The notes under the pieces are model-generated. The model did no database searches. It saw only the letters and a list, made by a program, of their open reading frames with translations, and was not told where the DNA came from. This document shows, in pieces, positions 19,536 through 57,064 of a stretch of 64,000 bases of DNA (its first letter is position 1; each line of letters begins with the position of its first letter). Both the position numbers and the translations under genes were made by a program. The stretch comes from Clostridia bacterium (GTDB lineage: Bacteria; Bacillota; Clostridia; Christensenellales; CAG-138), in assembly GCA_036651815.1 (NCBI GenBank), contig JAVVXB010000001.1:62640-126639 (forward strand), read 5' to 3'.

Positions 19536-19882
19536 ATACAAAACAAATTGGCGATTATGGAGAAGAGTTGGCGTTAACGTATCTCATGGAGCGGGGATGG
19601 ATTCTGCGCGGTAGAAACGTGCGGTTCGGACACAAGGAGTTGGATCTTGTGATGCAGGACGGCGAGACGATTGTGTTCGTGGAGGTTAAAGCTCGATCCA
19701 GTGATGGCTACGGAACGCCAGCGGAATTTGTAAACATAAGAAAGCAGCGCAATTTAATTCAGGCGGCGCAGGCTTACTTGATTTATGAACATCTGACGCA
19801 TGCGTTTGCGCGCTTTGACGTTGTGGAAGTGTATCTGCCTGAGAGGCGTGTGGTACATATCCAGGGCGCGTTTTCCACATGA
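19532..19882 (+). CDS. yraN: YraN family (UPF0102) predicted endonuclease
   Basis: GDYGEELALTYLMERGWILRGRNVRFGHKELDLVMQDGETIVFVEVKARS. ATGA overlap with rnhB. Confidence 0.85.
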   Translation: MNTKQIGDYGEELALTYLMERGWILRGRNVRFGHKELDLVMQDGETIVFVEVKARSSDGYGTPAEFVNIRKQRNLIQAAQAYLIYEHLTHAFARFDVVEVYLPERRVVHIQGAFST

Positions 19883-19900
19883 AGTAAACTGTGCTATACT
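19872..19900 (+). promoter_or_regulatory. Possible extended -10 promoter for the large glycosyltransferase gene
   Basis: TGcTATACT (-10 at 19895-19900) with a weak -35, TTTCCA (19872-19877), and a 17-nt spacer. Confidence 0.35.
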
Positions 19901-19934
19901 AGTGAAATTCAATGATGGAGAAAGGATATTTTCC

Positions 19935-22900
19935 ATGCGAAAACTGTTTGCGATTGTGGCGGCAGCAGCCTGTCTGATCGTACCGGCCGCTGCGCTGGCT
20001 GAAACAACAGAGGCTTCCGGCAGCAATGAAAATTTGATTTACAATGCCGATTTTTCGGTATATACCAATTCGGCAGAGCTGCCTTCCGGCTGGGATTTGG
20101 AATCCTATTCCTTGGAGGATGCGGGTGTATTCGTCGATGTGGACGAGGATAAAGGCACCTATGTTTCCATTGAAAACTTCAATGCCAATGACACACGTGT
20201 CTGCCAGACGGTAAAAGCCCGCCCCAATACCTGCTATATGTTGACTGGGTGGGTCAAGCCAATCGATGTTTTTGGTGGCACGGGCGCAACGTTATCTATT
20301 GATAACTACAACATGGACGGTACGTATTGTTATTCGGACAATTTGCACGATACCTCCGACTGGCAGCGGCTGACGATGTATGTGCGCACCGGGCCGGAGC
20401 AGACGGAGCTTCGTGTTGCGCTACGCATCGGCGGATATGGAACCACAGCGTCCGGTGAGGCGTACTTTGCGCAGATTGCGTTGCGCGAGTGTGAGGAAGC
20501 CGGGACAATGAAGGTTATTGATCTCATGACGGAAAATGGGACGATCACCGATGTTTCGGTGGAAGAGACGACGGTGAAATTGGAGAGTCCGAATAGCTAT
20601 TTTGCGTTGATTTTGATTGCCGTGCTGCTGTGCGCTGCCTTGTTTACCTGGCTATATTTGCGCGTATTGCGATATGAAGGAAACGGGCTGAAGCTTGCCA
20701 ACGAAAACGGTAAGGGTAGTCCCACCTTACTGGCGGTGCTGCTCGTGGGTGCGTTTGTGTGTCGACTGGCGCTTTCACTGATATTCTATGGACATCCCAC
20801 CGACATCGGCTGCTTTATGGCATGGGGCGAAGCCGGACTGAACGTGGGGTTGCCCAATTTTTATACGTCGGGGATGTTTGCTGATTATCCGCCGGGATAT
20901 ATGTATATCTGCACCGCACTTTCTGGAATGTGCCGGCTGCTGGGCATTTCCTATGGCAGCACAGGCATGGCATTTCTATTCAAACTGCCAGCAACTCTTG
21001 CAGATTTAGGCAGCGCGTATCTGGTCTATCGCATTGCACGCAAAAGCAACGGATCGGAAGCGTTCTCGCTGATACTTGCCGGGCTCTTGGCGTTTAATCC
21101 GGTACTGATGTTCGTTTCCGGCGCTTGGGGACAGATTGATACGGTATTGACGCTCCTGTTGGTTTTGACCTGTTATCTCTTGCAGAAGGATAAACGAATT
21201 TTTGCGGGCGCAATCTATGGACTTGCGATTCTGATGAAACCGCAGGCATTGATGCTTGGGCCGCTGCTTGCGGTTGCGTTCATTGCGGATATCTTCGGGG
21301 AAAATTGGAAGAAAAAGCTGTTGCATACCGTGCTGGCGGTGTTGGCGGCATTGGCGGTGCTGGTGGTGCTCTCGCTACCGTTTACGGGCAATCAACCCTG
21401 GTATTGGTTGATTAAAAAATATGGGGAGACGGCGACTTCATACCAATATGCTTCCATTGAGGCGTTCAATTTTCCTGCACTCATCGGCGGCAACTGGCGT
21501 AAGATTGAAAACGTTTCGTTGCTGGGCATTCCCTATGCGACCGTTGGCGTGTGCTGCATTATGTTGGCGGTGGGTTTCTCAGTGTTTCTTTACTTGCGCG
21601 GCTATCGTAAAAATCAGGGCGTGGTATATCTTTGCGGCGCAGTGATGATACTGCTCATCTTCACCTTTGGCCACTATATGCACGAGCGGTATATGATACC
21701 CGTGATTATGCTGCTGCTAATGGCCTATCTCTATCTGAAAGACCGGCGGCTGCTGATTGCCTTCGGCGGCGTCAGCATCTCCGCGCTGCTCAATGTGCTC
21801 TGTGCGATGTATGTCGTTGGCAATCAAGCGGCGCGCGGCCCGCTCTACCTCGGCATTACGGCCGTTGGCTCGGCGCTGGAGATCTTTTCCTGCGGATATC
21901 TGGTCTATATTGCGATTCGTATTGTGCTGAATGGCCAGATTCTGCCGACGCTGTCCACTCCCGAAAAAACGCAAGAGCAGATTGCGGCGGCGCAGGCTGA
22001 GAAGGTGGAGCCGTTGCTGCCACTGAAACCAACGGATAACAAGTTGTGCATGACAAAACGGGACTGTTGGTATGTGCTGGGGATCACCCTTCTCTATGGC
22101 GTTATTGCGCTGATGAATCTCGGTTCGCTGAAATCGCCGGAAAGCTATTGGGAGGCAACAAAGCCCGGAGAGCAAGTAACCGTACGTTTTGCGCAAGCTG
22201 AACATGTGACCGGATACTGGATAAACGGCAACATTCGAACGGGCGGCACGTTGCTTGTGCAGGCGGACGAATATGAGTCCACGTTTGAACAGACCTATGA
22301 TGATATGTTCCGCTGGAAACCAGTTAGCGTAGATTTCGTCTCCGATAGTGTGACGCTGACGCTCTATTCCGGTACGCTCAAGCTGAATGAGATTGCGTTT
22401 TTTGGCGACAACGGCAAACTATTGCCGGTAACCGTTACGAGCACAGGTGCATCCGATGCGGCGTTGTTTGATGAGCAGGACACCGTGCCGGAGATTCCCA
22501 GCTATGAAAACGGTATGTATTTTGACGAGCTTTATCATGGCCGCACCGCATATGAGCATCTGCATAATCTAAAGCCGTTTGAAAACTCGCACCCGCCGCT
22601 CGGCAAAATCTTCATCATGCTGGGTGTGGCGGTGTTTGGCATGAATCCCTTTGGCTGGCGCGTGGTAGGGGCGCTGTTTGGCATCGCTATGCTACCGGTG
22701 TTCTACGCATTTGGCAAGCGAGTATTTAAAAATTCTAATTATGCGCTGCTTGCAACCACGTTGTTTGCGTTTGATTTTATGCATTTTACACAAACGCGGA
22801 TTGCAACCATCGACGTATATGCTGTGTTTTTCATTCTGCTGATGTACTACTATATGCTAGAGTACGTCACGATGAATTTCTTTGTGGACGGATTGAAGAA

Positions 22901-23786
22901 GACCCTCAAGCCATTGTTTTTGGCCGGGCTGTTCTTTGGCATCGGTGCCGCGTGCAAATGGACGTGCATCTATGCGGGCGGAGGGCTTGCGGTTCTACTG
23001 TTTGGCTCTCTTGTGGCACGGTATTTCGAGTATACGCGGGTTAGACAATCCGGTACGGCGGCGCAGAAAAAACAGGTTGCGCCATATTGGAAATATGTGG
23101 AACAAACGCTGTTGATCTGCTGTGTCTTCTATATTGTAATTCCGTTTACGATTTACTTTTTGTCCTACGTGCCATATTTTATCTATGAGGCCGGACAGAT
23201 GCCGGACTATGGGATTGCGGATGCGGGGAACACTTGGTGGAAGTATCAAACCTTCATGTATAATTATCATAGCAATCTGCAGGCTACGCATCCTTACCAG
23301 TCTGTGTGGTATCAATGGCCGTTTACGACCAAGCCCATGTGGTATTATTTCAATAGCTACAGCGGCGGAAAATTTGTCTCAACGATGAGCGCATCCGGCA
23401 ACCCGGCCGTGTGGTGGATTTGTTCTGTGGGCACGGTGATTCTGCTGGTACAGCGGCTTGCAAAGCGGATTAAGCCGGATCGTGCGCTGCAGATCATCTG
23501 CGTGGGTGTGCTGGCCAACTACCTGCCATGGGTGCTTGTCACCCGCTGTACGTTCATCTATCATTTTTTTGCAACCGTACCCTTCCTGATTCTCGCTGCG
23601 GTCTATGCGCTGCAACGAGTGGAAGAGCGCGACAAAGGATGTGTGTTTGTCAAGTGGGTCTGGATTGGGTTGACACTACTATTTTTTGTTCTACTCTATC
23701 CGGGACTATCTGGACAGCCCGTATCGCCGGGGTGGGCGGCGTTTCTTCATAATTTACCGGGAGGGACATTGATGTATGGCGCTTAA
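19935..23786 (+). CDS. Large exported/membrane glycosyltransferase: signal peptide, jelly-roll carbohydrate-binding-like domain, GT-C-like module 1, soluble beta-rich domain, PMT/GT39-like GT-C module 2
   Basis: ATG 19935 with SD GGAGAAAGGA. Signal peptide MRKLFAIVAAAACLIVPAAALA. Two polytopic blocks: the first has HPTDIGCFMAWGEAG and ADYPPGYMY, the second starts YFDELYHGRTAYEHL..HPPLGK (PMT-type loop-1 DE motif) and ends with a PMT C-terminal-like 4-TM region. Confidence 0.75.
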   Translation: MRKLFAIVAAAACLIVPAAALAETTEASGSNENLIYNADFSVYTNSAELPSGWDLESYSLEDAGVFVDVDEDKGTYVSIENFNANDTRVCQTVKARPNTCYMLTGWVKPIDVFGGTGATLSIDNYNMDGTYCYSDNLHDTSDWQRLTMYVRTGPEQTELRVALRIGGYGTTASGEAYFAQIALRECEEAGTMKVIDLMTENGTITDVSVEETTVKLESPNSYFALILIAVLLCAALFTWLYLRVLRYEGNGLKLANENGKGSPTLLAVLLVGAFVCRLALSLIFYGHPTDIGCFMAWGEAGLNVGLPNFYTSGMFADYPPGYMYICTALSGMCRLLGISYGSTGMAFLFKLPATLADLGSAYLVYRIARKSNGSEAFSLILAGLLAFNPVLMFVSGAWGQIDTVLTLLLVLTCYLLQKDKRIFAGAIYGLAILMKPQALMLGPLLAVAFIADIFGENWKKKLLHTVLAVLAALAVLVVLSLPFTGNQPWYWLIKKYGETATSYQYASIEAFNFPALIGGNWRKIENVSLLGIPYATVGVCCIMLAVGFSVFLYLRGYRKNQGVVYLCGAVMILLIFTFGHYMHERYMIPVIMLLLMAYLYLKDRRLLIAFGGVSISALLNVLCAMYVVGNQAARGPLYLGITAVGSALEIFSCGYLVYIAIRIVLNGQILPTLSTPEKTQEQIAAAQAEKVEPLLPLKPTDNKLCMTKRDCWYVLGITLLYGVIALMNLGSLKSPESYWEATKPGEQVTVRFAQAEHVTGYWINGNIRTGGTLLVQADEYESTFEQTYDDMFRWKPVSVDFVSDSVTLTLYSGTLKLNEIAFFGDNGKLLPVTVTSTGASDAALFDEQDTVPEIPSYENGMYFDELYHGRTAYEHLHNLKPFENSHPPLGKIFIMLGVAVFGMNPFGWRVVGALFGIAMLPVFYAFGKRVFKNSNYALLATTLFAFDFMHFTQTRIATIDVYAVFFILLMYYYMLEYVTMNFFVDGLKKTLKPLFLAGLFFGIGAACKWTCIYAGGGLAVLLFGSLVARYFEYTRVRQSGTAAQKKQVAPYWKYVEQTLLICCVFYIVIPFTIYFLSYVPYFIYEAGQMPDYGIADAGNTWWKYQTFMYNYHSNLQATHPYQSVWYQWPFTTKPMWYYFNSYSGGKFVSTMSASGNPAVWWICSVGTVILLVQRLAKRIKPDRALQIICVGVLANYLPWVLVTRCTFIYHFFATVPFLILAAVYALQRVEERDKGCVFVKWVWIGLTLLFFVLLYPGLSGQPVSPGWAAFLHNLPGGTLMYGA

Positions 23787-24243
23787 AAAATCAGACGAAG
23801 GCAAGAAGACCTTCATTCAGTTCATTCAATTCAATATTGTGGGCGTACTGAATACGCTGGTGGATTTTCTGGTGTTCCAGGCGCTCAACCTGCTGCTTGG
23901 GTGGACGTATGTTGCGCAGGTCATCAGCTATAGCTGCGGCATCATTAATAGTTATCTCTGGAACAGCAACTGGACGTTTAAGGAGCAACGGACGCGTTCT
24001 CTGCGGGAAATGCTGTTGTTTCTCGTGGTGAATGTCATCTCGTTGGGGGTGTCGCTTGGAGTTATCTGGCTGTGCAAAAACGTGTTTGGTGTGACGGATG
24101 CATGGGTGAGCGGCTGGATTCCAGCGTGGCTTGCTGGCTTTATCAAGGGGGACACGGTCTGCAAGTTGATTGCAACACCATGCGCCATCGTGGTCAATTA
24201 CCTTGGCAACCGGCTGTTTGTCTTTCGCAAAAAACAGGTGTAG
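23776..24243 (+). CDS. GtrA family membrane protein
   Basis: 155 aa with four predicted TM helices. FIQFNIVGVLNTLVDFLVF and NYLGNRLFVFR are typical GtrA termini. It overlaps the upstream gene by 11 nt. Confidence 0.85.
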   Translation: MALKKSDEGKKTFIQFIQFNIVGVLNTLVDFLVFQALNLLLGWTYVAQVISYSCGIINSYLWNSNWTFKEQRTRSLREMLLFLVVNVISLGVSLGVIWLCKNVFGVTDAWVSGWIPAWLAGFIKGDTVCKLIATPCAIVVNYLGNRLFVFRKKQV

Positions 24244-32419: not shown

Positions 32420-32445
32420 CGGACAAGTTGGAGTGGATACGGAAT

Positions 32446-33327
32446 ATGCAAAAACGATTGCTTTATAGTCTAATCACGCTGTGCATCTGCGCATTGCTGG
32501 GTGGGTGTGATACGTACATGACTGCCAAGACTGTGGTCTTGGAGCTTGCCACGCCTTCACCTTCCCCGGTGACGATTGAACTGATCGCTTTTGCGGAACC
32601 GGAACTGCCGGATCCGCTGCCACTGCCAACGCCAGAGCCGACACCGCAACCAACACAGGCACCGACTGCCGAGCCTATGCCGGAAACAACGGATACGCCG
32701 GAGCCGACGGCCGTATCCAAAAAGACCACGACACCGAAAAAGACTCCAAAACCAAAGCCGGCAAAAACTGCAACACCAAAACCAAGTGTAACGGAGGCAC
32801 CGACGGCAGCGCCCAAACCAACAGCAGCACCTACCCAAGAGCCTACGCCAAACCCGACTGGCAATCCAATGCCAGATCCGGTGATTACGGCCGTGCCCAC
32901 ATTGGAACCGACGGCAGCACCCACACCACCGCCAATGAATATTCCGCCGGACATCAATGTATCTGGCAGTTATAATGCGGAAGATATCGCGTTGGCTGCG
33001 CGCGTGGCGTATTTTGAGGCTGGGAAGACAGAAGAGGGATACCGCGCGGTGCTGTGTGTGATTATCAATCGTGTAGATTCCGGAAAATGGCCCGATTCCG
33101 TCCATGATGTGTGTTATCAGAAAAATCAGTTTACAGTGGTCAAGGGCTCAAACTTTTTGACCAAAACCATTCCAGATGAAGTATACGTCTATGCAAATGA
33201 CGTACTCAATAACGGCAACCGAATGTTGCCAAGCGACGTGATGTCTTTCCGCGCGGGTAAGGACGACAAAACCTGGGGTAGTCGGACTTATTACGGAACC
33301 TATGGGGGGAATGACTTCTACTCATAA
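32446..33327 (+). CDS. Lipoprotein with Pro/Thr-rich linker and SleB/CwlJ-type cell-wall hydrolase (Hydrolase_2) domain
   Basis: Lipobox LLGGC after a hydrophobic leader. A linker of about 120 aa rich in P/T/E/K. The C-terminus AARVAYFEAGKTEEGYRAVLCVIINRV...VCYQKNQFTVV matches the SleB-type domain. TTG 32428 is an alternative start. Confidence 0.75.
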   Translation: MQKRLLYSLITLCICALLGGCDTYMTAKTVVLELATPSPSPVTIELIAFAEPELPDPLPLPTPEPTPQPTQAPTAEPMPETTDTPEPTAVSKKTTTPKKTPKPKPAKTATPKPSVTEAPTAAPKPTAAPTQEPTPNPTGNPMPDPVITAVPTLEPTAAPTPPPMNIPPDINVSGSYNAEDIALAARVAYFEAGKTEEGYRAVLCVIINRVDSGKWPDSVHDVCYQKNQFTVVKGSNFLTKTIPDEVYVYANDVLNNGNRMLPSDVMSFRAGKDDKTWGSRTYYGTYGGNDFYS

Positions 33328-36625: not shown

Positions 36626-36778
36626 TTTACAAAGTGACGCTCCCCGATGGGCATGTGTATAGGATCTGCAGATTTTAGCGTTGAGCGCTGTGCGTGATGG
36701 CAGGTAAGACATAGGACAAAATGTAAGCTGCATAGGCTATTTCATCGAATCGTGTCGAACGATGGAAGGAGTGGTCTC

Positions 36779-37468
36779 ATGCAGCTTTTTCAATTCTTCT
36801 CGGACTTGCTTTTTCTTGCTGCCTATGTTGGAACAGCCAATGCGTTCCCGGAGCCGCTAGCCGCGGAGGAAGAACGGGACTGCATTGCCCGCATGCTCCG
36901 GGGAGATATTTCTGCTCGGGAAACGCTTATCGAACATAATCTTCGCCTTGTTGCACATATTGCCAAAAAATACATCCGTGCCGGTCGTGACAGCGACGAT
37001 GTTATCAGCATCGGAACCATCGGCCTAATCAAAGCGGTCTCCACCTACGATCCGGCGAAGGGAGTGGCGCTCTCAAGCTATGCGAGCCGTTGCGTGGAAA
37101 ACGAGATTCTCATGAGCATCCGCGTGGAACGCAAGCAGGTGCCGGAGGTGCCGCTGTATGAACCGATCGGTATGGATGGGGATGGTAATGATATTGCCCT
37201 ATGCGATATTCTGGGTACAGATCCGGATACGGTCATTGATGAAGTTCAGCGTAGGCTGGATGTGCAGCTGATCCATCGGATCATGAATCATTCATTGACC
37301 TCGCGAGAACGTACGGTCATTGAGATGCGTTTTGGACTGTTTGGCGGATTTCGCATGACGCAAAGGGAGGTTGCCAGAACCTTGGGCATTTCGCGCTCGT
37401 ATATCTCGCGCATTGAAAAGAAAGCCCTGATGAAACTGACGACTGCGCTTGCGCAAGCGGAAGGTTGA
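36779..37468 (+). CDS. sigK: Sporulation sigma factor SigK (pro-sigma-K), uninterrupted
   Basis: The pro-sequence and processing region LLFLAAYVGTANAFPEPL parallels B. subtilis pro-sigma-K (SYVKNNAFPQPL). IEHNLRLVAHIAKKY, ISIGTIGLIKAV and RCVENEILM are also present. SD GGAAGGAG. Confidence 0.85.
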   Translation: MQLFQFFSDLLFLAAYVGTANAFPEPLAAEEERDCIARMLRGDISARETLIEHNLRLVAHIAKKYIRAGRDSDDVISIGTIGLIKAVSTYDPAKGVALSSYASRCVENEILMSIRVERKQVPEVPLYEPIGMDGDGNDIALCDILGTDPDTVIDEVQRRLDVQLIHRIMNHSLTSRERTVIEMRFGLFGGFRMTQREVARTLGISRSYISRIEKKALMKLTTALAQAEG

Positions 37469-45476: not shown

Positions 45477-45567
45477 ATGCTGAGATTTAAAAGATACCAT
45501 TTGATGGGATATGGTATAATCATTGCAATTATTGAATCCATCAATGGATGTGAACAGGAGGAACAAC

Positions 45568-47502
45568 ATGATTGCGCAGGCAATAGAAGCATATAAAAGT
45601 GCGCTGCATCTTGGGCAAAGAGAATTTCGCGCATGTGTTGCACATGGACAGAATCCATACCCGGCACTGCTTTCTGATGAACTACCGGATATTAACGCGG
45701 TTCGCCAGGAGCATGCGGGCATAATAGAGGTACCGGCGGAACAATTTATCGGCGTTGGCAACGCATCCCGACAAGAAGCGTTTTCGGCAGGATTCATGCC
45801 GTTGCTTGGCGAAACGTCTGAATTTGCAGGTAAGTGGATTGCCCTTTGCAACGCGCATTTAGAGAATGGCATTCGCGATGCTGTGAAGGCTTATGATTAT
45901 ATGAACCGATACTTTGTGGAAGAAGGCAACAAGCGTGTCAGCGTACTTAAATATCTGGGGGCTTCTCATATTGCGGCGGATGTTACACGTTTGATCCCCC
46001 CGAAAAATGGCGAGAAGGAAAACAACATTTATTATGAGTTTCTGGATTTTCATCGGCAGACCGGTATTCCAGATATCTATTTTTCAGAGGAAGGCCGCTT
46101 TGCAAGGCTATTGCAAACGGTGGGAAAAAACGAAGGCCAAGTATGGACCGACGATGAGAAGATGGCGTTGCGGGCGGCTTATCAGCGTTTCTTTGCGGTC
46201 TTCAATAAATACAACGCCAAAAGATTTCAGGTATCCTGCAGCGATGCGTTCTTGGCATATGCGGACATCTGTGGCTACGAGACACTTCGCACACAAACGG
46301 AAGATGAAATCGCGGCAAATCTTATGCAGATGCGGGACGAAGTGGTCGTTCTCGGACGTACGGATGCCGTGAAACTGAGCCTAAATCCGATGCCGGCTTC
46401 GCAGGCGCCACTGCTGAACAAACTCCTACCGGTGCATTCTGCAGAACTGCGAACTGCATTTTTGTTTGAAAAAACGGTTGAGACTTCGCCATGGACGGCG
46501 GTGCACGATGCTGGCCGACGAAGAATGGAACGAAACTTTAAGGGCAAGGTCGGCACAGTAAGCTACGATCGGGTGATGGTCGGCCAAAATGATGAGGAAA
46601 TTCTTGAACGGGCAATTGCAGAGGGGGCGGATGTAATTTTCACGACCACGCCAAAGATGATATCCGCCAGCGTAAAGGCAGCGGTACAGCATCCGGGGGT
46701 GAAGATCTTAAACTGTTCGCTGAATATGGTGCATCCATCCGTTCGCACCTACTACGCGCGCGTGTATGAAGCCAAGTTTTTAATTGGCGCAATTGCAGGC
46801 GCGATGTGCGAAAATGATACCATTGGTTATTTGGCGGATTATCCAATATTTGGCGTTCCTGCCAACATCAATGCCTTTGCCAAAGGAGTCCAAATGGTCA
46901 ATCCCCGCGCACGCGTTCAGCTTGAATGGACAAGTATCGCGGGACATGATCCGTATACGGCGTTCCGAGATAACGGTGTTACGTTGATTTCAGGGCGGGA
47001 CCTGCGTAGCTTGGAATGGGAAGTGCAGAGCTATGGCCTGTATCAGCAGCATGTCGATGGCGTGGAATGGCTTGCGTTGCCTTACTGGCACTGGGGCAAA
47101 ATGTACACGGAGATTGTTTCCAGCATTTTGTGTGGCACATGGAAAACAGAGGCGACACGCGCTGAGGAGCAGGCAATCAACTATTGGTGGGGGCTGTCCA
47201 GCGGGGTGCTGGACGTGACGTGCAGCGGTAGCTTGCCAACTGGCACCGTGCGGCTGATGGAGGTGCTGCGGGAGTCGATTCTATCCGGTAAGCTGGATGC
47301 CTTGGCACCTTTTCCGGAACCATATTTGACGGAGATGGAACGTACCACACTAAAAAGCCCGTCTCCTGAGGATATTCTCAGGATGGATACGCTGGCGGAG
47401 AACGTGGTGGGGAGTATTCCGGAAATGGAGATACTCATCGAGGAGGCCAAGCCACTTGTAAGATTGCAGGGCCTGCGCGCGCAGGAGGCACAACGGCTAT
47501 GA
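45568..47502 (+). CDS. Cytoplasmic fusion protein: ParB/Srx-like N-terminal region plus BMP (PnrA/Med)-family periplasmic-binding-fold C-terminal domain
   Basis: ATG 45568 follows SD AGGAGGA. There is no signal peptide or lipobox. The N-terminal part has YFVEEGNKRVSVLKYLG. The C-terminal ~330 aa (GADVIFTTTPKM..., YEAKFLIGAIAGAM..IGYLADYPIFGVPANINAFAKGVQMVNP) matches the BMP family. Confidence 0.7.
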   Translation: MIAQAIEAYKSALHLGQREFRACVAHGQNPYPALLSDELPDINAVRQEHAGIIEVPAEQFIGVGNASRQEAFSAGFMPLLGETSEFAGKWIALCNAHLENGIRDAVKAYDYMNRYFVEEGNKRVSVLKYLGASHIAADVTRLIPPKNGEKENNIYYEFLDFHRQTGIPDIYFSEEGRFARLLQTVGKNEGQVWTDDEKMALRAAYQRFFAVFNKYNAKRFQVSCSDAFLAYADICGYETLRTQTEDEIAANLMQMRDEVVVLGRTDAVKLSLNPMPASQAPLLNKLLPVHSAELRTAFLFEKTVETSPWTAVHDAGRRRMERNFKGKVGTVSYDRVMVGQNDEEILERAIAEGADVIFTTTPKMISASVKAAVQHPGVKILNCSLNMVHPSVRTYYARVYEAKFLIGAIAGAMCENDTIGYLADYPIFGVPANINAFAKGVQMVNPRARVQLEWTSIAGHDPYTAFRDNGVTLISGRDLRSLEWEVQSYGLYQQHVDGVEWLALPYWHWGKMYTEIVSSILCGTWKTEATRAEEQAINYWWGLSSGVLDVTCSGSLPTGTVRLMEVLRESILSGKLDALAPFPEPYLTEMERTTLKSPSPEDILRMDTLAENVVGSIPEMEILIEEAKPLVRLQGLRAQEAQRL

Positions 47503-53136: not shown

Positions 53137-54780
53137 TTGCAGATACTCTCTGGTATGGAAGAAATGGGAAAACGACGCGGCTGGTGCAATTTTTTTGCCC
53201 GTATGCGCTTTGACCGGCCAAATGCCGCATTTGAATTACTGGAGACGGAGCATGGACAACCCTCGTTCTGGGGCGGTTGGCAGGAAAACTGCGCCGGGGT
53301 GGATTCTGTACAGCAGACAGCGGATGACGCCATCAATAGGAGTTTAGCGAAAAATCGTCAGCGGTTATCGCGCGAGCTACGTGGGGAGATTAACTCCGAT
53401 TTGATTTTGCGCCCGTTTGTGCTTGGTGGTGCTGTTCCTGCGCTTGCGGCATTTTTAAACGGCATGGCTGATGGAGAACAGATCAATGATTTTATTTTAA
53501 AACCGGGTATGCGCCGTGACTGTATGCAAAACGCTGGGGAGCAGTGGGCGGCTTTTGCACTTGAAAATGTTTTTGCTATGCAGGAAGCGGAGCTCTCCAG
53601 CAGTTGGGGGACAGCCAAAGAAGCCATTGAAGAAGGCAGGACGGTCGTTTTTATCGAGGGAGATATCAGCGCGGTACTGATGGATACCCGTGGTTTTGCG
53701 AGCCGCTCGGTGACCACGCCACAGAATGAGGTCGTGATCCTTGGGCCACATGAGGCGTTTACGGAGAATATTCGAACGAACGTGACGCTGATCCGCCGCA
53801 TTATCAAAACGGACGATCTGGTCTGCGAATTTCGGAAATCCGGTGGAAAAAACAACAATCGGATTGCAATTTTATATCGGGATGGCCTAGCAAATCCAAG
53901 CTTGATCAATGAAGTCAAGCGCAGGTTCGCAGCCGTTGATACGCTGATGGTGTTATCTATCGGCACGTTGGAGCAGTTGACGGAAGCGCATCCGTTTTCA
54001 CCGCTGCCGCAGTCGCTGACTACGGAGCGGCCGGATCGAGTGGCATCGTATCTGATGCAGGGGCATGTGGCGGTACTGTGTGAGGGCAGTCCGTTCAGCA
54101 ACGTAATGCCAGCGACGCTCTTTGCCATCATGAGCTCCGGCGAGGACGCCTATCTGCGTCAGCCAGTGGGGACGATCGTGCGGATCGTACGGTATGTGGG
54201 TGCATTTCTGTCCATCATCATGCCCGCTTACTTTCTTGCACTGGCGCTGCATCATCAGGGCATGCTTTCCGGAGAGGTGCTGGCGACGGTGATTGCATCG
54301 CGCAATATGGTATTTTTACCACTGGGCGTAGAGATGCTCTTTCTGCTGTTTGTGTTCCAACTTGTCCGACAAGCCGGCATCAGCGTACCGGGGGCAATGG
54401 GACAGAGCATTGGCATTATCGGTGGCCTGATTCTTGGACAGGCGGCAGTGAGCGCCAATATTGTCAGTAAGGTGGTGCTGATAATCGTTGCGTTAGCTGG
54501 GCTAGGCAATTTCTGCATTCCCGATTACAACACGCAGTTGGCGGCGGCTTATTACCGCATCACACTGGCCATGTTTGCATGGCTGGGCGGATTATTGGGA
54601 CTTTCCTGTGCGCTGCTGATTACCATTGCGATGTTGTCCAGTCTCAAGTCGTATGGCGTGCCGTTTCTGACACCGGTTTCTCCAAAAACATACGCGAAGG
54701 GTCCGACGGTTTTACGTGGAAGGGTAGAGATGCATCTGCGACCCACGGATTATATCAATGGTAGGAGGAGAAAGCCATGA
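53137..54780 (+). CDS. Spore germinant receptor A subunit (GerA/GerAA family)
   Basis: Soluble N-terminal domain plus 4-5 C-terminal TM helices. ILGPHEAFTENIRTNVTLIRRII, TERPDRVASYLMQGHVAVL and SPFSNVMPATLF are GerA-family signatures. The start is uncertain (TTG 53137, ATG 53155 or ATG 53164). Confidence 0.85.
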   Translation: MQILSGMEEMGKRRGWCNFFARMRFDRPNAAFELLETEHGQPSFWGGWQENCAGVDSVQQTADDAINRSLAKNRQRLSRELRGEINSDLILRPFVLGGAVPALAAFLNGMADGEQINDFILKPGMRRDCMQNAGEQWAAFALENVFAMQEAELSSSWGTAKEAIEEGRTVVFIEGDISAVLMDTRGFASRSVTTPQNEVVILGPHEAFTENIRTNVTLIRRIIKTDDLVCEFRKSGGKNNNRIAILYRDGLANPSLINEVKRRFAAVDTLMVLSIGTLEQLTEAHPFSPLPQSLTTERPDRVASYLMQGHVAVLCEGSPFSNVMPATLFAIMSSGEDAYLRQPVGTIVRIVRYVGAFLSIIMPAYFLALALHHQGMLSGEVLATVIASRNMVFLPLGVEMLFLLFVFQLVRQAGISVPGAMGQSIGIIGGLILGQAAVSANIVSKVVLIIVALAGLGNFCIPDYNTQLAAAYYRITLAMFAWLGGLLGLSCALLITIAMLSSLKSYGVPFLTPVSPKTYAKGPTVLRGRVEMHLRPTDYINGRRRKP

Positions 54781-55871
54781 ACCTGCGGGAAGGAAGAATC
54801 GGACGGCAGGAAACCGCAGCGGTGGCATTGATTGCCTGTACAATCTGCGGCATATTTTCAATGAATACCGAAAACTTTTACAGACAGGGGAATTCTTCGT
54901 ATATTTCCAGCGCACTATCGGCAGGATTATCGCTGCTGGCTTTTTTCCTGATTGCAGAAGCGATGCGGAGGAAGCACTGCCGGAATCTAGCGGCATTGTA
55001 CCGCATGGCATATGGACGCATACTGGCGATTCCGCTGTCGTTTGTGACGTTGCTGATGCTGATCTATTCTGCGATTATGCCGCTTGATCGTCTGCTGATT
55101 ATTCTGTGCCGCTATGTGTTTATTGAAACAACAGCGCAGCAAGTGATGCTGTATATGACAGCATGCGTGGTGTTATTGGCATGGATGGGACTGGAGATTA
55201 TTGCTCGCACAGCTAAAATATTGGTTGGGGTGATTGTCCTTGCTTTTTTCGTCGCATTTTTGATTGCCATTCCTGCCTATGAGGTCTATCGATTATATCC
55301 GCTGCTTGGCAATGGACTTGGATCTACATTTTTGCTGGGGCTAACGGGTATCGCGCGTTTTTTCCCGGGGGTGCTGGCCTTGCTCATCTGCGGCGTTGGC
55401 GTGCAGGGACTGAACAGTGCTGCAACGGGCGCAAACGCGGGCATATTGGGTGGAGGATTACTTACGGTTGGTTCGCAACTTTGCCTTGGGATGACGTATC
55501 CGGCTAGCTTGCTGGCAACCATGCATGCACCAATGTACCGACTCACCATGTCTGTGAAAACGGGAAGCTCATATTTGCGTACAGACAAGCTGCTATTATT
55601 TTTCTGGATGATGGCTGGTCTGCTGGTGGGTGGATTCTATGCATACACGGGGGCGCTACTATACGCGGGCACTGCATACATGCGGGATATCCGTCCGGCG
55701 GCGGCGGCGGTTGGTCTGTCCATCGGTGCACTGACATTGATTGGATACTTGCAGTTTGCATGGTTTGAAAGCATCATGTTGTTTTTGCACGTCTACGCTT
55801 GGGCATTGCTGCTGCTACCGCCGATGATGGCAGCGATGATTGTAAGCATAAAGCCGGAGCATGCGGAATGA
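54777..55871 (+). CDS. Spore germinant receptor B subunit (GerAB-type, APC-like permease)
   Basis: 364 aa with about 10 TM helices. SD GGAGGAGAAA and ATGA overlap with the A subunit gene. In the operon position expected for a B subunit. Confidence 0.8.
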   Translation: MNLREGRIGRQETAAVALIACTICGIFSMNTENFYRQGNSSYISSALSAGLSLLAFFLIAEAMRRKHCRNLAALYRMAYGRILAIPLSFVTLLMLIYSAIMPLDRLLIILCRYVFIETTAQQVMLYMTACVVLLAWMGLEIIARTAKILVGVIVLAFFVAFLIAIPAYEVYRLYPLLGNGLGSTFLLGLTGIARFFPGVLALLICGVGVQGLNSAATGANAGILGGGLLTVGSQLCLGMTYPASLLATMHAPMYRLTMSVKTGSSYLRTDKLLLFFWMMAGLLVGGFYAYTGALLYAGTAYMRDIRPAAAAVGLSIGALTLIGYLQFAWFESIMLFLHVYAWALLLLPPMMAAMIVSIKPEHAE

Positions 55872-57064
55872 AGAAAATACTATCATTCATCGTCGCTTGC
55901 GCCATTGCAATACCTTCTGTTGGGTGTCTGGAAGCGCATAGCCTGGATCAATATGGGTATGTGATGGGCATTGGATTTGATAAAGGCGAGGTATTGCCGT
56001 ATCGAATTACCTTGATGCTGCAAAATATGCAAATGGGATCGGATGAACAAAAAAACGGCGGGTTCACGCTTATTGACGCAGAATGCAGAAATTTGTTTGA
56101 GGCAATTGAAACACTTTCCGGCAGTTTACCGTTTCAATTGGATTTTGCGCGCACAGCGTTACTTGTCATAGAGTCCTCTCTCTTGCAGGAAGAAGGCGGC
56201 CTGGAACGACTATTGGACCTGTCGCTGCATCACTTGCTGATCCGGTATAATGCAAATGTGTTTGTATCGCTTTCCTCGGCATACGATGCAATGGGAGGGC
56301 TGCAAAACGAATTGGACCCGAATTTATCAAAGATGCAGCAAAATTTCGTGGCATACTCGGAGAGTACAGGACTGATTCCAGTGACCAATTTAATGATGCT
56401 CAGCGAGGAAATGACAGAGAAAACGCATGATCCGATGTTACCGGTGTGCGGCATAACACATGAGGAACAAAAGGTGACGCAAGGAAGGGATAGCGTCGGG
56501 GAAACGCCCTATGCGTATATCGGCGGTAGCTTGCTGATCAAAAGCGGTATGAAGACAGAGCTTGCCGGCGCGGCACTGCTTTCCAACGGGCGGATGGTTG
56601 GCGTGTTGGGTGGACAGAATACACAACTATTGTTGATGGGAAATGGCACGTTTCAATCCGGCCGTATGCAACTGCTGGACCGGAAAGGAAACACAGTCAG
56701 CGTATATTTTGAGAAGGACGGAGAAATGAAGGTTCATCTAACGCTATGGCCGATGCCAAGAGCGATTGTGACGATTCCGCTGACGGCAAACATTGAGTTA
56801 CCGGATCGGTCGATCGAGGAGAGCAAGGAGCGTACGCAGGAAATGATTGCAGAACAGCTCGCGCAAGGAACACAAAAGGTCTTTGCATGCTGCCAAAAGC
56901 ATGGGGCGGATACCTTTGGCTTTGGCAAATATGCAGTGAAACAGTTTTCGCGCACGGTTGATTGGGACCGCTATGATTGGAAAAAGGCGTATCAAGAATT
57001 GAATGCAACCTTCATCTACACGGTGCGGCTGGTGCAAAATCCAGAGAAATCCGCGTTGGAATAG
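55868..57064 (+). CDS. Spore germinant receptor C subunit (Ger(x)C lipoprotein)
   Basis: The internal ATG gives MKKILSFIVACAIAIPSVGC (lipobox), followed by LDQYGYVMGIGFDK, typical of GerAC. ATGA overlap with the B subunit gene. Confidence 0.85.
   Translation: MKKILSFIVACAIAIPSVGCLEAHSLDQYGYVMGIGFDKGEVLPYRITLMLQNMQMGSDEQKNGGFTLIDAECRNLFEAIETLSGSLPFQLDFARTALLVIESSLLQEEGGLERLLDLSLHHLLIRYNANVFVSLSSAYDAMGGLQNELDPNLSKMQQNFVAYSESTGLIPVTNLMMLSEEMTEKTHDPMLPVCGITHEEQKVTQGRDSVGETPYAYIGGSLLIKSGMKTELAGAALLSNGRMVGVLGGQNTQLLLMGNGTFQSGRMQLLDRKGNTVSVYFEKDGEMKVHLTLWPMPRAIVTIPLTANIELPDRSIEESKERTQEMIAEQLAQGTQKVFACCQKHGADTFGFGKYAVKQFSRTVDWDRYDWKKAYQELNATFIYTVRLVQNPEKSALE

Follow-up and report, generated by a model that had tools for sequence, protein, structure and literature searches.

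A single-chain protein with two GT-C glycosyltransferase modules, PMT-type and GT87-type, in a conserved gene slot of Clostridia

In actinobacteria, protein O-mannosylation is initiated by a GT39 enzyme, Pmt, and extended by a GT87 enzyme, PimE, and both of them use polyprenol-phosphate-mannose (PMC12757957, review). Two GT-Cs, PgfM1 and PgfM2, also take part in the extracellular O-glycosylation of surface proteins by the Pgf system of Streptococcus mutans, which further includes PgfS and PgfE (PMC12041528). Gram-positive systems that combine GtrA with a GT-C have teichoic acids and polysaccharides of the wall as their usual targets (PMC8035078, PMC7389260). Can two such enzymes be carried on one polypeptide? 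Here, we describe a gene in the genome of a Clostridia bacterium, lying in a stretch of 64 kb (the window), whose 1,283-aa product is predicted to be a single membrane chain of ~24 helices that has two distinct catalytic centres, both of them facing outwards. Its database name is only "glycosyltransferase family 39 protein". Among the papers searched, none describes a tandem GT-C polypeptide; an earlier note on this DNA had raised the possibility that the architecture was already characterised.

Layout of the gene and its extracytoplasmic domains

The features of the locus are as follows.

19872..19900, + strand: promoter-like site just 5′ of the gene (TTTCCA, 17 nt, TG-TATACT), a pattern match only, from a consensus scan that finds no more such sites here than shuffled sequence would lead one to expect
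19917..19926, + strand: Shine-Dalgarno sequence GGAGAAAGGA, 8 nt before ATG 19935, read from the sequence
19935..23786, + strand: whole gene of the fused dual GT-C glycosyltransferase, 1,283 aa, stop TAA at 23784-86 (ORF listing, full-length homologues)
19935..20000, + strand: signal peptide, aa 1-22, MRKLFAIVAAAACLIVPAAALA, with an AxA cleavage-type site (hydropathy peak at aa 4-22, low N-terminal pLDDT)
20022..20534, + strand: extracytoplasmic beta-sandwich, aa ~30-200, CBM4/9/16-like (model, Foldseek, Pfam matches of orthologues)
20589..20663, + strand: anchoring helix TM0, aa 219-243 (hydropathy 2.6; helix 219-243 in the model)
20718..21929, + strand: GT-C module 1, aa 262-665, ~12 helices, GT87/DUF2029-type (Pfam, Foldseek, PDB profile search)
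21930..22055, + strand: P/E/K-rich linker on the cytoplasmic side, aa 666-707 (aa 691-712 modeled with pLDDT below 50; hydropathy/charge topology)
22056..22130, + strand: TM1 of the PMT module, aa 708-732 (in the model of the C-terminal half, helix 19-38, corresponding to aa 708-727; hydropathy)
22131..22502, + strand: second extracytoplasmic beta domain, aa 733-856, a diverged F5/8-type-C (CBM32-like) domain (hhalign, Foldseek)
22503..23783, + strand: GT-C module 2, aa 857-1283, PMT/GT39-type (Pfam, Foldseek, PDB profile, motif alignment)
23776..24243, + strand: gtrA, encoding a 4-helix GtrA-family protein of 155 aa (Pfam GtrA_DPMS_TM, E 2.6e-28, 99 bits)

The uninterrupted ORF spans 19800-23786 on the + strand, and the protein from ATG 19935 begins with MRKLFAIV. 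From the N- to the C-terminus, the signal peptide is followed by the CBM4/9-like beta-sandwich, the anchoring helix, GT-C module 1, the linker and the PMT/GT39 module. The earlier note had read six parts in one ORF, and the ORF listing, Pfam, structure models and hydropathy find every one of them. The signal peptide is probably cleaved, judging from its AxA-type site. TM0, which is followed by an R/K-rich loop, brings the chain back to the cytoplasm ahead of module 1, and the hydropathy/charge topology puts the two beta domains, as well as the two loops with the acidic residues, on the outer side. One beta domain of the carbohydrate-binding type stands outside, ahead of each module.

Both soluble regions had been guessed to bind glycans, and the comparisons find both to be similar to carbohydrate-binding modules, of the CBM4/9 and the F5/8-type-C kind. 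The N-terminal beta-sandwich is modeled with 10 strands at pLDDT 75-94, and Foldseek relates it to CBM70, CBM16, CBM4 and CBM61 structures with E-values of 8e-8 to 1e-5, 4d0q (CBM70) giving E 8e-8. Pfam CBM_4_9_1 matches this domain in 11 out of 28 orthologues (best E 5.7e-8) and CBM_4_9 in 4 out of 28, the CBM_4_9-type match of the window copy itself being weak (E 0.11); N85, D86, R88, Y101, R164 and G166 are invariant. The second beta domain sits in the first outer loop of the PMT module, between its TM1 and its DE motif. The window copy has no direct Pfam match, and its CBM32 matches in Foldseek are weak (E 0.02-0.05). Its assignment comes by way of P0150, which contains three copies of Pfam F5_F8_type_C (E 1e-21) and whose F5/8 type C domain aligns with the window domain in hhalign at 95.8% probability (E 8e-9).

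Two GT-C modules of different families

In both sequence and fold, module 2, which as a whole covers aa 708-1283, is a member of the protein O-mannosyltransferase (PMT/GT39) family. PMT_2 (E 1e-18), PMT_4TMC (E 2e-17) and PMT (E 5e-15) of Pfam all match it above their gathering scores, PMTs are the only matches of its sequence profile in the PDB, and its model is closest to Pmt4 (9i5k, E 1.2e-10, TM-score 0.67), with Pmt1/Pmt2 (6p25) also found. It has the motifs D864-E865 (nt 22524-29, within YFDELYH), HPPLGK, QTRIATID and HPYQSVWYQWP and the 4-helix C-terminal region of PMTs; FDE, HPPLGK, QTRxxxxD and HPYxSxxYQWP align with those of fungal Pmt4. Nevertheless, its score against the NCBIfam equivalog model of bacterial Pmt is 65 bits where the cut-off is 800, and the protein is therefore no orthologue of the characterised Pmt.

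The first membrane block is also a GT-C, as the earlier note proposed, and not an unrelated membrane domain. It belongs to a GT-C family distinct from PMT, namely Pfam GT87 (E 1.4e-11, 45 bits, gathering score 25), a label that depends on one broad Pfam model; PMT_2, Alg6_Alg8, PIG-M and ALG3 match more weakly. In Foldseek, its AlphaFold model matches ALG6 (6snh, E 6.5e-7), Gpi14 (9wno, TM-score 0.69) and ALG3 (9s6r), and in the PDB its sequence profile finds GPI mannosyltransferase 1 (E 1.3e-9) but not PimE. The invariant D290 (nt 20802-04) opens the first outer-loop helix, and D317-YPPGY, K435-PQALM and H583-ERY are invariant as well. D290 is kept in 38 orthologues and D864-E865 in 28, and in the models each stands at the N-terminal tip of the helix that comes next after TM1 of its own module. 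PimE, ALG6, ArnT and PglB have their catalytic Asp in this position, where the first outer helix begins (PMC12041525). The possibility that the two modules are duplicates of each other was rejected, since hhalign aligns them with a probability of 0.8%.

Fused and split forms in related genomes

Hundreds of uncultured Clostridia, from the gut and from the environment, have the fused protein at the same spot of the core genome, and 94 out of 150 representatives have the fused form. The slot, rnhB-yraN-[gene]-gtrA-comM, is retained down to ~31-33% identity. The earlier note was right about the position between yraN and comM but called it odd; a whole lineage keeps this slot, and the position is no accident of insertion. 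Full-length homologues of 1,250-1,350 aa form more than 120 protein clusters, and with this recurrence and E-values of 1e-11 to 1e-28 the fused architecture is not due to chance.

Modules 1 and 2 are always found together, in one fused gene or in two adjacent ones. A survey of single and split homologues had been suggested: all parts lie in a single ORF in 81 of the 81 related loci, from different species, that contig ends leave uncut, whereas some relatives, such as L087, encode the two modules as adjacent genes in the same order and slot. There, the split falls at the linker, the point where related genomes divide the gene in two: the first gene has its stop here, and the second, with an SD and an ATG to itself, begins 8 nt before the first one ends; in split forms, module 1 persists as an independent gene that has a CBM of its own. 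From the adjacent-gene arrangement we conclude that the modules are a functional pair. Such two-gene versions could lend some color to the view that two neighboring genes were joined into the long ORF by an error of assembly or sequencing. However, a real split form, with its own SD and ATG and the 8-nt overlap, is a different sequence state, and the identical 1,283-aa protein in three assemblies, the 81 single ORFs and the full-length clusters refute an artefact, whose probability we put at practically nothing.

The next gene was correctly recognized in the earlier note as GtrA-type, and its start overlaps the stop of the fused gene by 11 nt. In related loci, gtrA lies downstream in 74 out of 81, overlapping in 42 and less than 60 nt away in 30. 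In one relative, a gene with a NAGPA phosphodiester-glycosidase domain stands in place of gtrA. As had been noted for the window, no GtrB-like GT2 lipid-sugar synthase is encoded among its + strand ORFs of at least 200 aa, nor is one present within 10 kb in nine homologous loci.

Proposed function and comparison with known systems

The protein is very probably a two-active-site, lipid-sugar-dependent extracytoplasmic glycosyltransferase. Both catalytic centers would use polyprenyl-phosphate-linked sugars. For the acceptor, we give about an even chance to a protein on which the PMT module initiates and module 1 extends. The PMT module would attach the first hexose to Ser/Thr residues as proteins emerge from the membrane, and module 1 would lengthen this sugar into a short chain while its CBM-like domain holds the glycan; GtrA may supply the flipped lipid-linked donor, made by an unlinked GT2 synthase. 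ALG6, Gpi14/PIG-M and ALG3, the closest relatives of module 1 with a solved structure, all take a hexose from a lipid-phosphate donor and add it to a sugar that is already in place. The two successive extracytoplasmic transfers proposed earlier would agree with all the evidence. One polypeptide would probably both begin and lengthen the sugar chains of exported proteins or of polymers of the wall.

A serious rival, which we consider possible though rather unlikely, is that the same chemistry serves a non-protein acceptor of the envelope, such as a secondary cell-wall polysaccharide, a teichoic-acid-like polymer or a lipoglycan, built or decorated by both modules while the CBM-like domains hold the growing polymer, in a manner akin to YfhO, GacL, Emb, AftD and the mycobacterial lipomannan mannosyltransferases. 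Both accessory domains have folds of carbohydrate-binding modules and fit a polysaccharide at least as well as a protein. CBM-bearing GT-C enzymes that act on polysaccharides are known, and EmbA/B and AftD are among the Foldseek matches. The order-wide core-gene position would suit a basic envelope polymer, the NAGPA-domain gene replacing gtrA hints at sugar-phosphate polymers, and the Gram-positive systems of GtrA and GT-C mentioned at the outset point the same way. On the other hand, module 2 has the full set of PMT-specific motifs together with the PMT_4TMC region, its profile matches only protein O-mannosyltransferases in the PDB, and to our knowledge characterised GT39 members act on Ser/Thr of proteins. 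As PMTs themselves carry a lectin-like MIR domain, a sugar-binding domain is no argument against a protein acceptor.

It is improbable that the PMT module alone is catalytic and that module 1 is an inactive GT-C scaffold for lipid binding, partner docking or substrate recruitment, as PIG-U is in GPI transamidase. PIG-U chains (9ub7_B, 8imx_U) are indeed among the structural matches of module 1, and since PMTs function as dimers, the fused partner might stand in for the dimer mate. But polar residues on its outer face (D290, D317, K350, D357, W398-G-Q, K435-P-Q and H583-E-R-Y) are invariant across orthologues of only 37-63% overall identity, D290 occupies the canonical catalytic position, and module 1 survives as its own CBM-bearing gene in the split forms.

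How does the locus stand beside known systems? The GtrA/GtrB/GT-C systems (Gtr of Shigella phages; CsbB-GtcA-YfhO of Bacillus and Listeria) likewise have a GtrA gene beside a GT-C and the logic of extracytoplasmic lipid-phosphate-sugar transfer, but no GT2 (GtrB-type) gene is linked here, in the window or in the nine homologous loci, and where they have one GT-C, of the YfhO or GtrV type, there are two here, PMT and GT87. Pgf, likened here by description only, is a Firmicutes precedent with two GT-Cs, which are separate proteins in an operon with a GT-A synthase and an epimerase and not fused. Mycobacterial EmbA/B/C and AftD share a GT-C with extracytoplasmic carbohydrate-binding modules, though with a single module per chain, of a different GT-C family, and with arabinan acceptors. 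Structurally, module 1 is matched best by ALG6 (GT57), Gpi14/PIG-M (GT50) and ALG3 (GT58), with TM-scores to target of 0.62-0.69, and Gpi14 is its only significant sequence match in the PDB; these three enzymes are eukaryotic, stand-alone, without a CBM and 14-17% identical to it. Fungal Pmt1-Pmt2 and Pmt4 (PDB 6p25, 9i5k, 9e61) are the best matches of module 2 in both structure and sequence, sharing the DE motif, HPPLGK, QTRxxxxD, HPYxSxxYQWP and the C-terminal 4-helix region at 11-18% identity. In place of their MIR domain in a late lumenal loop, module 2 has the F5/8-type-C domain in loop 1 before the DE motif, and instead of pairing with a second PMT it is fused in cis to a GT-C of another kind. 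Finally, actinobacterial Pmt (GT39, e.g. Rv1002c) and PimE/GT87 represent the same two Pfam families, at the outer face and with a polyprenol-phosphate sugar, one initiating on Ser/Thr and the other extending to 1-3 residues (PMC12757957). Under the scheme of initiation followed by extension, the fusion would be a one-chain version of this initiator and extender pathway: what are separate proteins in actinobacteria are here, in a Clostridia host, one chain or adjacent genes, with a CBM4/9-like domain and an F5/8-type-C insertion in addition.

A single gene in a conserved slot

The reading frame of the fused gene is free of stop codons over 19800-23786 on the + strand, and an ATG at 19935, located 8 nt downstream of GGAGAAAGGA, starts a product of 1,283 aa with the N-terminus MRKLFAIV. 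The ORF of the next gene, gtrA (23776-24243), begins 11 nt ahead of the TAA of the fused gene (23784-86). A promoter-like site is found upstream at 19872-19900 as a pattern match only. GC content of the fused gene, 0.48-0.53, is the same as that of the flanks, and thus there is no sign of its recent import.

Is such a long gene a genuine one? The earlier note had read it as one uninterrupted ORF, with a fused-gene artefact still to be excluded, and the single-gene reading holds. The identical 1,283-aa protein is present in three assemblies, and one ORF runs over all the parts in 81 of 86 homologous loci (the best 80 and 6 others), the other five being cut by contig ends; these two observations together rule out an assembly artefact. 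More than 120 clusters with 47-63% identity are all 1,250-1,350 aa long, and a scan limited to a single genome for each species returned relatives from at least 354 species representatives. The fusion is both genuine and ancient. Its carriers are metagenome-assembled genomes of uncultured Clostridia labeled as Christensenellaceae, Christensenella sp., Eubacteriales, Feifaniaceae, or "Oscillospiraceae." The window also encodes a spore-germination receptor operon (53137-57064; GerA, a Spore_permease family protein, and GerAC) and a short sigma factor with the two domains r2 and r4 (36752-37468), so that the uncultured host is probably a spore former.

A survey of single and split homologs, which had been proposed together with the single-gene reading, revealed both fused and split forms. 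When aa 1-712 were compared with 1.8 billion representatives, 712 clusters were obtained at E up to 1e-30; among the best 150 of them, 94 have the second membrane module and about 30 group at 640-705 aa. One of the short forms, P0135 (702 aa), occupies the same slot, with a 624-aa PMT gene and then gtrA after it. Since this PMT gene has its own Shine-Dalgarno sequence and ATG, with its start overlapping the end of the P0135 gene by 8 nt, genuine split forms exist with gene order unchanged. Another split form lies off the usual slot with cinA upstream (L091:2948-4207; also L090:8540-9364). At the L091 locus, the gene after a stand-alone gene for the carbohydrate-binding domain and module 1 codes for a signal peptide of its own as well as another CBM4/9-like domain (38% identity with that of the window protein), two helices and an F5/8-like domain before the contig ends. 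There, both GT-Cs appear to come with a separate copy of one and the same lectin-type domain.

The gene order rnhB-yraN-[gene]-gtrA-comM-dprA-topA-trmFO-hslVU is kept around relatives with 60%, 58%, 47%, and even 33% identity. Therefore, the position between yraN and comM was read correctly in the earlier note, but its description as an odd context does not stand: it is a conserved core-genome slot. All credible window genes of at least 200 aa are on the + strand, minus-strand ORFs overlap + strand genes, and GC skew is positive all along the profiled stretch of 14-30 kb of the window, which is consistent with core genes forming a block on the leading strand. Another window gene, 45523-47502, encodes a 659-aa protein in which a Pfam match (Bmp/PnrA substrate-binding protein) covers residues 311-470 only, leaving 310 N-terminal and about 190 C-terminal residues without a match.

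Two GT-C modules and two beta domains in one chain

Topology of the fused protein was deduced from hydropathy and charge and from two AlphaFold models, one of aa 1-712 (pLDDT 83.5) and the other of aa 690-1283 (pLDDT 85.5, pTM 0.88), which are mutually consistent.

Predicted layout of the fused protein (19935-23786, + strand)
aa 1-22: signal peptide
aa ~30-200: N-terminal beta-sandwich, outside
aa 219-243: extra helix TM0, returning the chain to the cytoplasm
aa 262-665: module 1, about 12 helices, membrane
aa 666-707: disordered P/E/K linker, cytoplasm
aa 708-732: first helix of module 2, membrane
aa 733-856: second beta domain, outside
aa 857-1283: remainder of module 2, membrane

With this order and topology, the second beta domain is placed so as to interrupt the first outer loop of module 2: TM1 precedes it and the DE motif follows.

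Module 2 scores above the gathering thresholds of three Pfam families: PMT (PF02366; 56.1 bits, E 5e-15, gathering score 22.7), PMT_4TMC (PF16192; 63.9 bits, E 2e-17, gathering score 32.4), and PMT_2 (68.4 bits, E 1e-18, gathering score 26.1). In a Foldseek search with its model, the first seven matches are all PMT chains (fungal Pmt4, Pmt1/Pmt2; best E 1.2e-10), followed by AglB, PglB, and ArnT, and a profile made from 28 orthologues finds PMTs as its sole matches in PDB. Five motifs, FDE, HPPLGK, QTRxxxxD, HPYxSxxYQWP, and RxxFxxH, align residue by residue with Pmt4. D864-E865 (YFDELYH) is aligned with the VFDEVHF motif of Pmt4, is unchanged across sets of 38 and 28 orthologues, and is predicted to be outside the membrane. 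Judged from the profiles and the model, module 2 is a member of the PMT/GT39 family with a predicted PMT fold. The score against NF058602, the NCBIfam equivalog for characterised bacterial Pmt, is 65.5 bits and does not reach the cut-off of 800, and by this measure module 2 is a family member but not an orthologue or equivalog of that enzyme. It is to be noted that a second conserved acidic motif, L-x-DE-Q-D-T-V-P with an invariant D-E pair (22467-22490; aa 845-852, FDEQDTVP), is located where the F5/8-like domain meets the first outer helix, 18 residues ahead of the PMT DE motif.

Module 1 matches GT87/DUF2029 (PF09594) at 42.3-45.1 bits against a gathering score of 25, dropping to about 23 bits in remoter orthologues, and more weakly PMT_2, Alg6_Alg8, PIG-M, and ALG3. 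Its model (pLDDT 83.5) resembles ALG6 (E 6.5e-7), Dol-P-Man-bound Gpi14 (TM-score 0.69), ALG3, and PIG-U, and its profile finds GPI mannosyltransferase 1 (Gpi14) in PDB with E 1.3e-9. D290 is invariant and is located at the start of helix 288-304, immediately after TM1; D317-YPPGY, K435-PQALM, and H583-ERY are likewise invariant. In ALG6, ArnT, and PglB the catalytic Asp has this same location, as does D58 of PimE (PMC12041525), so that D290 corresponds to PimE D58 by position only. The module 1 profile did not find PimE in a PDB sequence set, which may or may not include a PimE chain, at E up to 10, and direct sequence likeness of module 1 to PimE was not found in this search. Assignment to "GT-C class B" from the ALG6 match was dropped, for ALG6, ArnT, PglB, and PimE are all placed in subclass GT-C_A (PMC12041525). 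According to the model and profiles, module 1 is predicted to have a GT-C fold, and the tip of its first outer helix bears a conserved acidic residue. Thus, the claim of two GT-C modules in one chain is borne out by Pfam, fold, and the conserved Asp and DE of modules 1 and 2, respectively, and the first block, for which a separate HMM check had been suggested, is itself GT-C with 45 bits for GT87. Internal duplication was considered and rejected: hhalign between the two modules gives a probability of 0.8% with E 0.07. Without detectable relationship, they represent a fusion of two families and not a duplication.

The N-terminal domain model matches structures of CBM70, CBM16, CBM4, and CBM61 in Foldseek (E 8e-8 to 1e-5). 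The window copy is marginal in Pfam CBM4/9 (E 0.11), and 11 of 28 orthologues match CBM_4_9_1 at E up to 0.01, the best at 5.7e-8. The domain is accordingly described as CBM4/9-like with putative sugar binding, in agreement with what had been read from the sequence. The second beta domain has no direct Pfam match in the window protein and resembles CBM32 weakly in Foldseek (E 0.02-0.05). It is tentatively placed with F5/8 type C by transitive homology via P0150, a longer relative: it aligns with such domains there at an hhalign probability of 95.8% (E 8e-9), and P0150 itself matches F5_F8_type_C (PF00754) in three copies at E 1e-21. P0150 (L088:4063-9003, 1,646 aa) and P0246 (L092:10001-14836, 1,611 aa) are longer fused variants having three such domains in tandem ahead of the PMT DE motif, as compared with one in the window protein; therefore, the number of domains in loop 1 is variable.

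GtrA and the donor synthase

The gtrA product, in which four hydrophobic stretches are read, scores 99 bits against Pfam GtrA_DPMS_TM (gathering score 26.1) over the full 117-position profile. It does not reach the cut-off of the NCBIfam gtrA_1 subfamily (13.7 vs 50). By sequence it is assigned to the GtrA family, which, with the 11-nt overlap, confirms the neighbor recognized before. Of 81 loci, 74 have gtrA downstream, and in 42 it overlaps the fused gene. Two distant relatives are without gtrA. In one of them, P0246 (31% identity), an NAGPA gene (PF09992, phosphodiester glycosidase; L092:14845-15912) replaces it between the GT-C gene and comM, and a gene for CBM_4_9 and Glyco_tran_WbsX (L092:5781-7706) lies just upstream on the opposite strand. 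These two neighbors may point to the type of glycan.

As noted earlier from the sequence, no GT2 synthase of GtrB/CsbB type is found in the window among + strand ORFs of at least 200 aa by Pfam scans and annotation; a GT2-motif regular expression has no match in the window, nor is such a synthase present within 10 kb at nine homologous loci. Therefore, the donor synthase is unlinked, and it may be encoded elsewhere in the genome.

A proposed role, its rivals and known systems

GT-C enzymes use polyprenyl-phosphate sugars and normally have one catalytic module per chain; PMTs glycosylate Ser/Thr, and glycans are extended by ALG6, ALG3, and Gpi14. Here, the two GT-C modules differ in family, keep their signature residues intact at the outer face, are paired obligatorily, and are accompanied by two outer lectin-type domains. 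How could such a protein work? Module 2 would initiate a sugar chain and module 1 would elongate it, with the beta domains holding the glycan or substrate and GtrA delivering the donor. In actinobacteria, the GT39 enzyme Pmt starts O-mannose chains and the GT87 enzyme PimE elongates them (PMC12757957).

Tentatively, and with slightly more doubt than belief, we propose that the fused protein is a covalent heterodimer of different GT-Cs, a one-chain assembly line for O-glycans that couples a PMT-type initiator to an ALG/PIG-M/GT87-type extender, with a lectin-like domain for each; that PMT-type protein O-glycosylation has been inherited vertically as a core trait in a large group of Christensenellales-like Clostridia that are mostly uncultured and prominent in guts; and that the fusion is a "Rosetta stone" for obligate GT39/GT87-like partners. 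The main rival is that the acceptor is a polysaccharide or lipoglycan, which would suit the CBM-type domains, be in line with a core gene, and agree with what GtrA/GT-C systems usually modify in Gram-positive bacteria; a protein acceptor is what the PMT-type identity of module 2 would suggest. That module 1 is non-catalytic is less likely, because its invariant polar residues disfavor such a reading. A Ser/Thr-rich scan of window proteins gave one weak lead, a SleB-type cell-wall hydrolase (Hydrolase_2, 32428-33327) with a T/P/K-rich linker TTDTPEPTAVSKKTTTPKKTPKPKPAKTAT. As exposed Ser/Thr-rich stretches are typical O-glycosylation targets, this linker is a possible acceptor.

In databases, the fused protein is named "glycosyltransferase family 39 protein" or "Gpi18-like mannosyltransferase," so the sequence itself is not new. 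Literature searches on tandem or dual GT-C enzymes, Christensenella glycosyltransferases, and Christensenellaceae envelope glycoproteins gave nothing relevant, and no publication was found that describes this family or any tandem GT-C polypeptide. To our knowledge, PMT-type protein O-glycosylation in bacteria is known from Actinobacteria only, and the cell envelope of this Firmicutes gut lineage has been little studied. A paper on bacterial PMTs mentions neither Firmicutes nor fusions (PMC11727336).

What does such a protein mean more widely? Fused and split forms tie a PMT-type initiator genetically to a glycan-extending GT-C, and this is independent support for the actinobacterial partnership of Pmt and GT87. 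They predict PMT-type O-glycosylation, or an unfamiliar envelope polymer, in a Firmicutes lineage associated with human gut health. The gene keeps its housekeeping slot in at least 354 species representatives; its product is therefore likely to be a basic part of the envelope, and the gene a usable marker of the lineage. For structural biology, the fusion provides a ready-made complex of two lipid-sugar transferases and lectin domains. Three-component Gtr systems have a linked GT2 synthase, unlike the locus of the fused gene. Extracellular protein O-glycosylation by GT-C enzymes does occur in Firmicutes, and the Pgf system, in which two GT-Cs participate, is among the precedents for it (PMC12041528).
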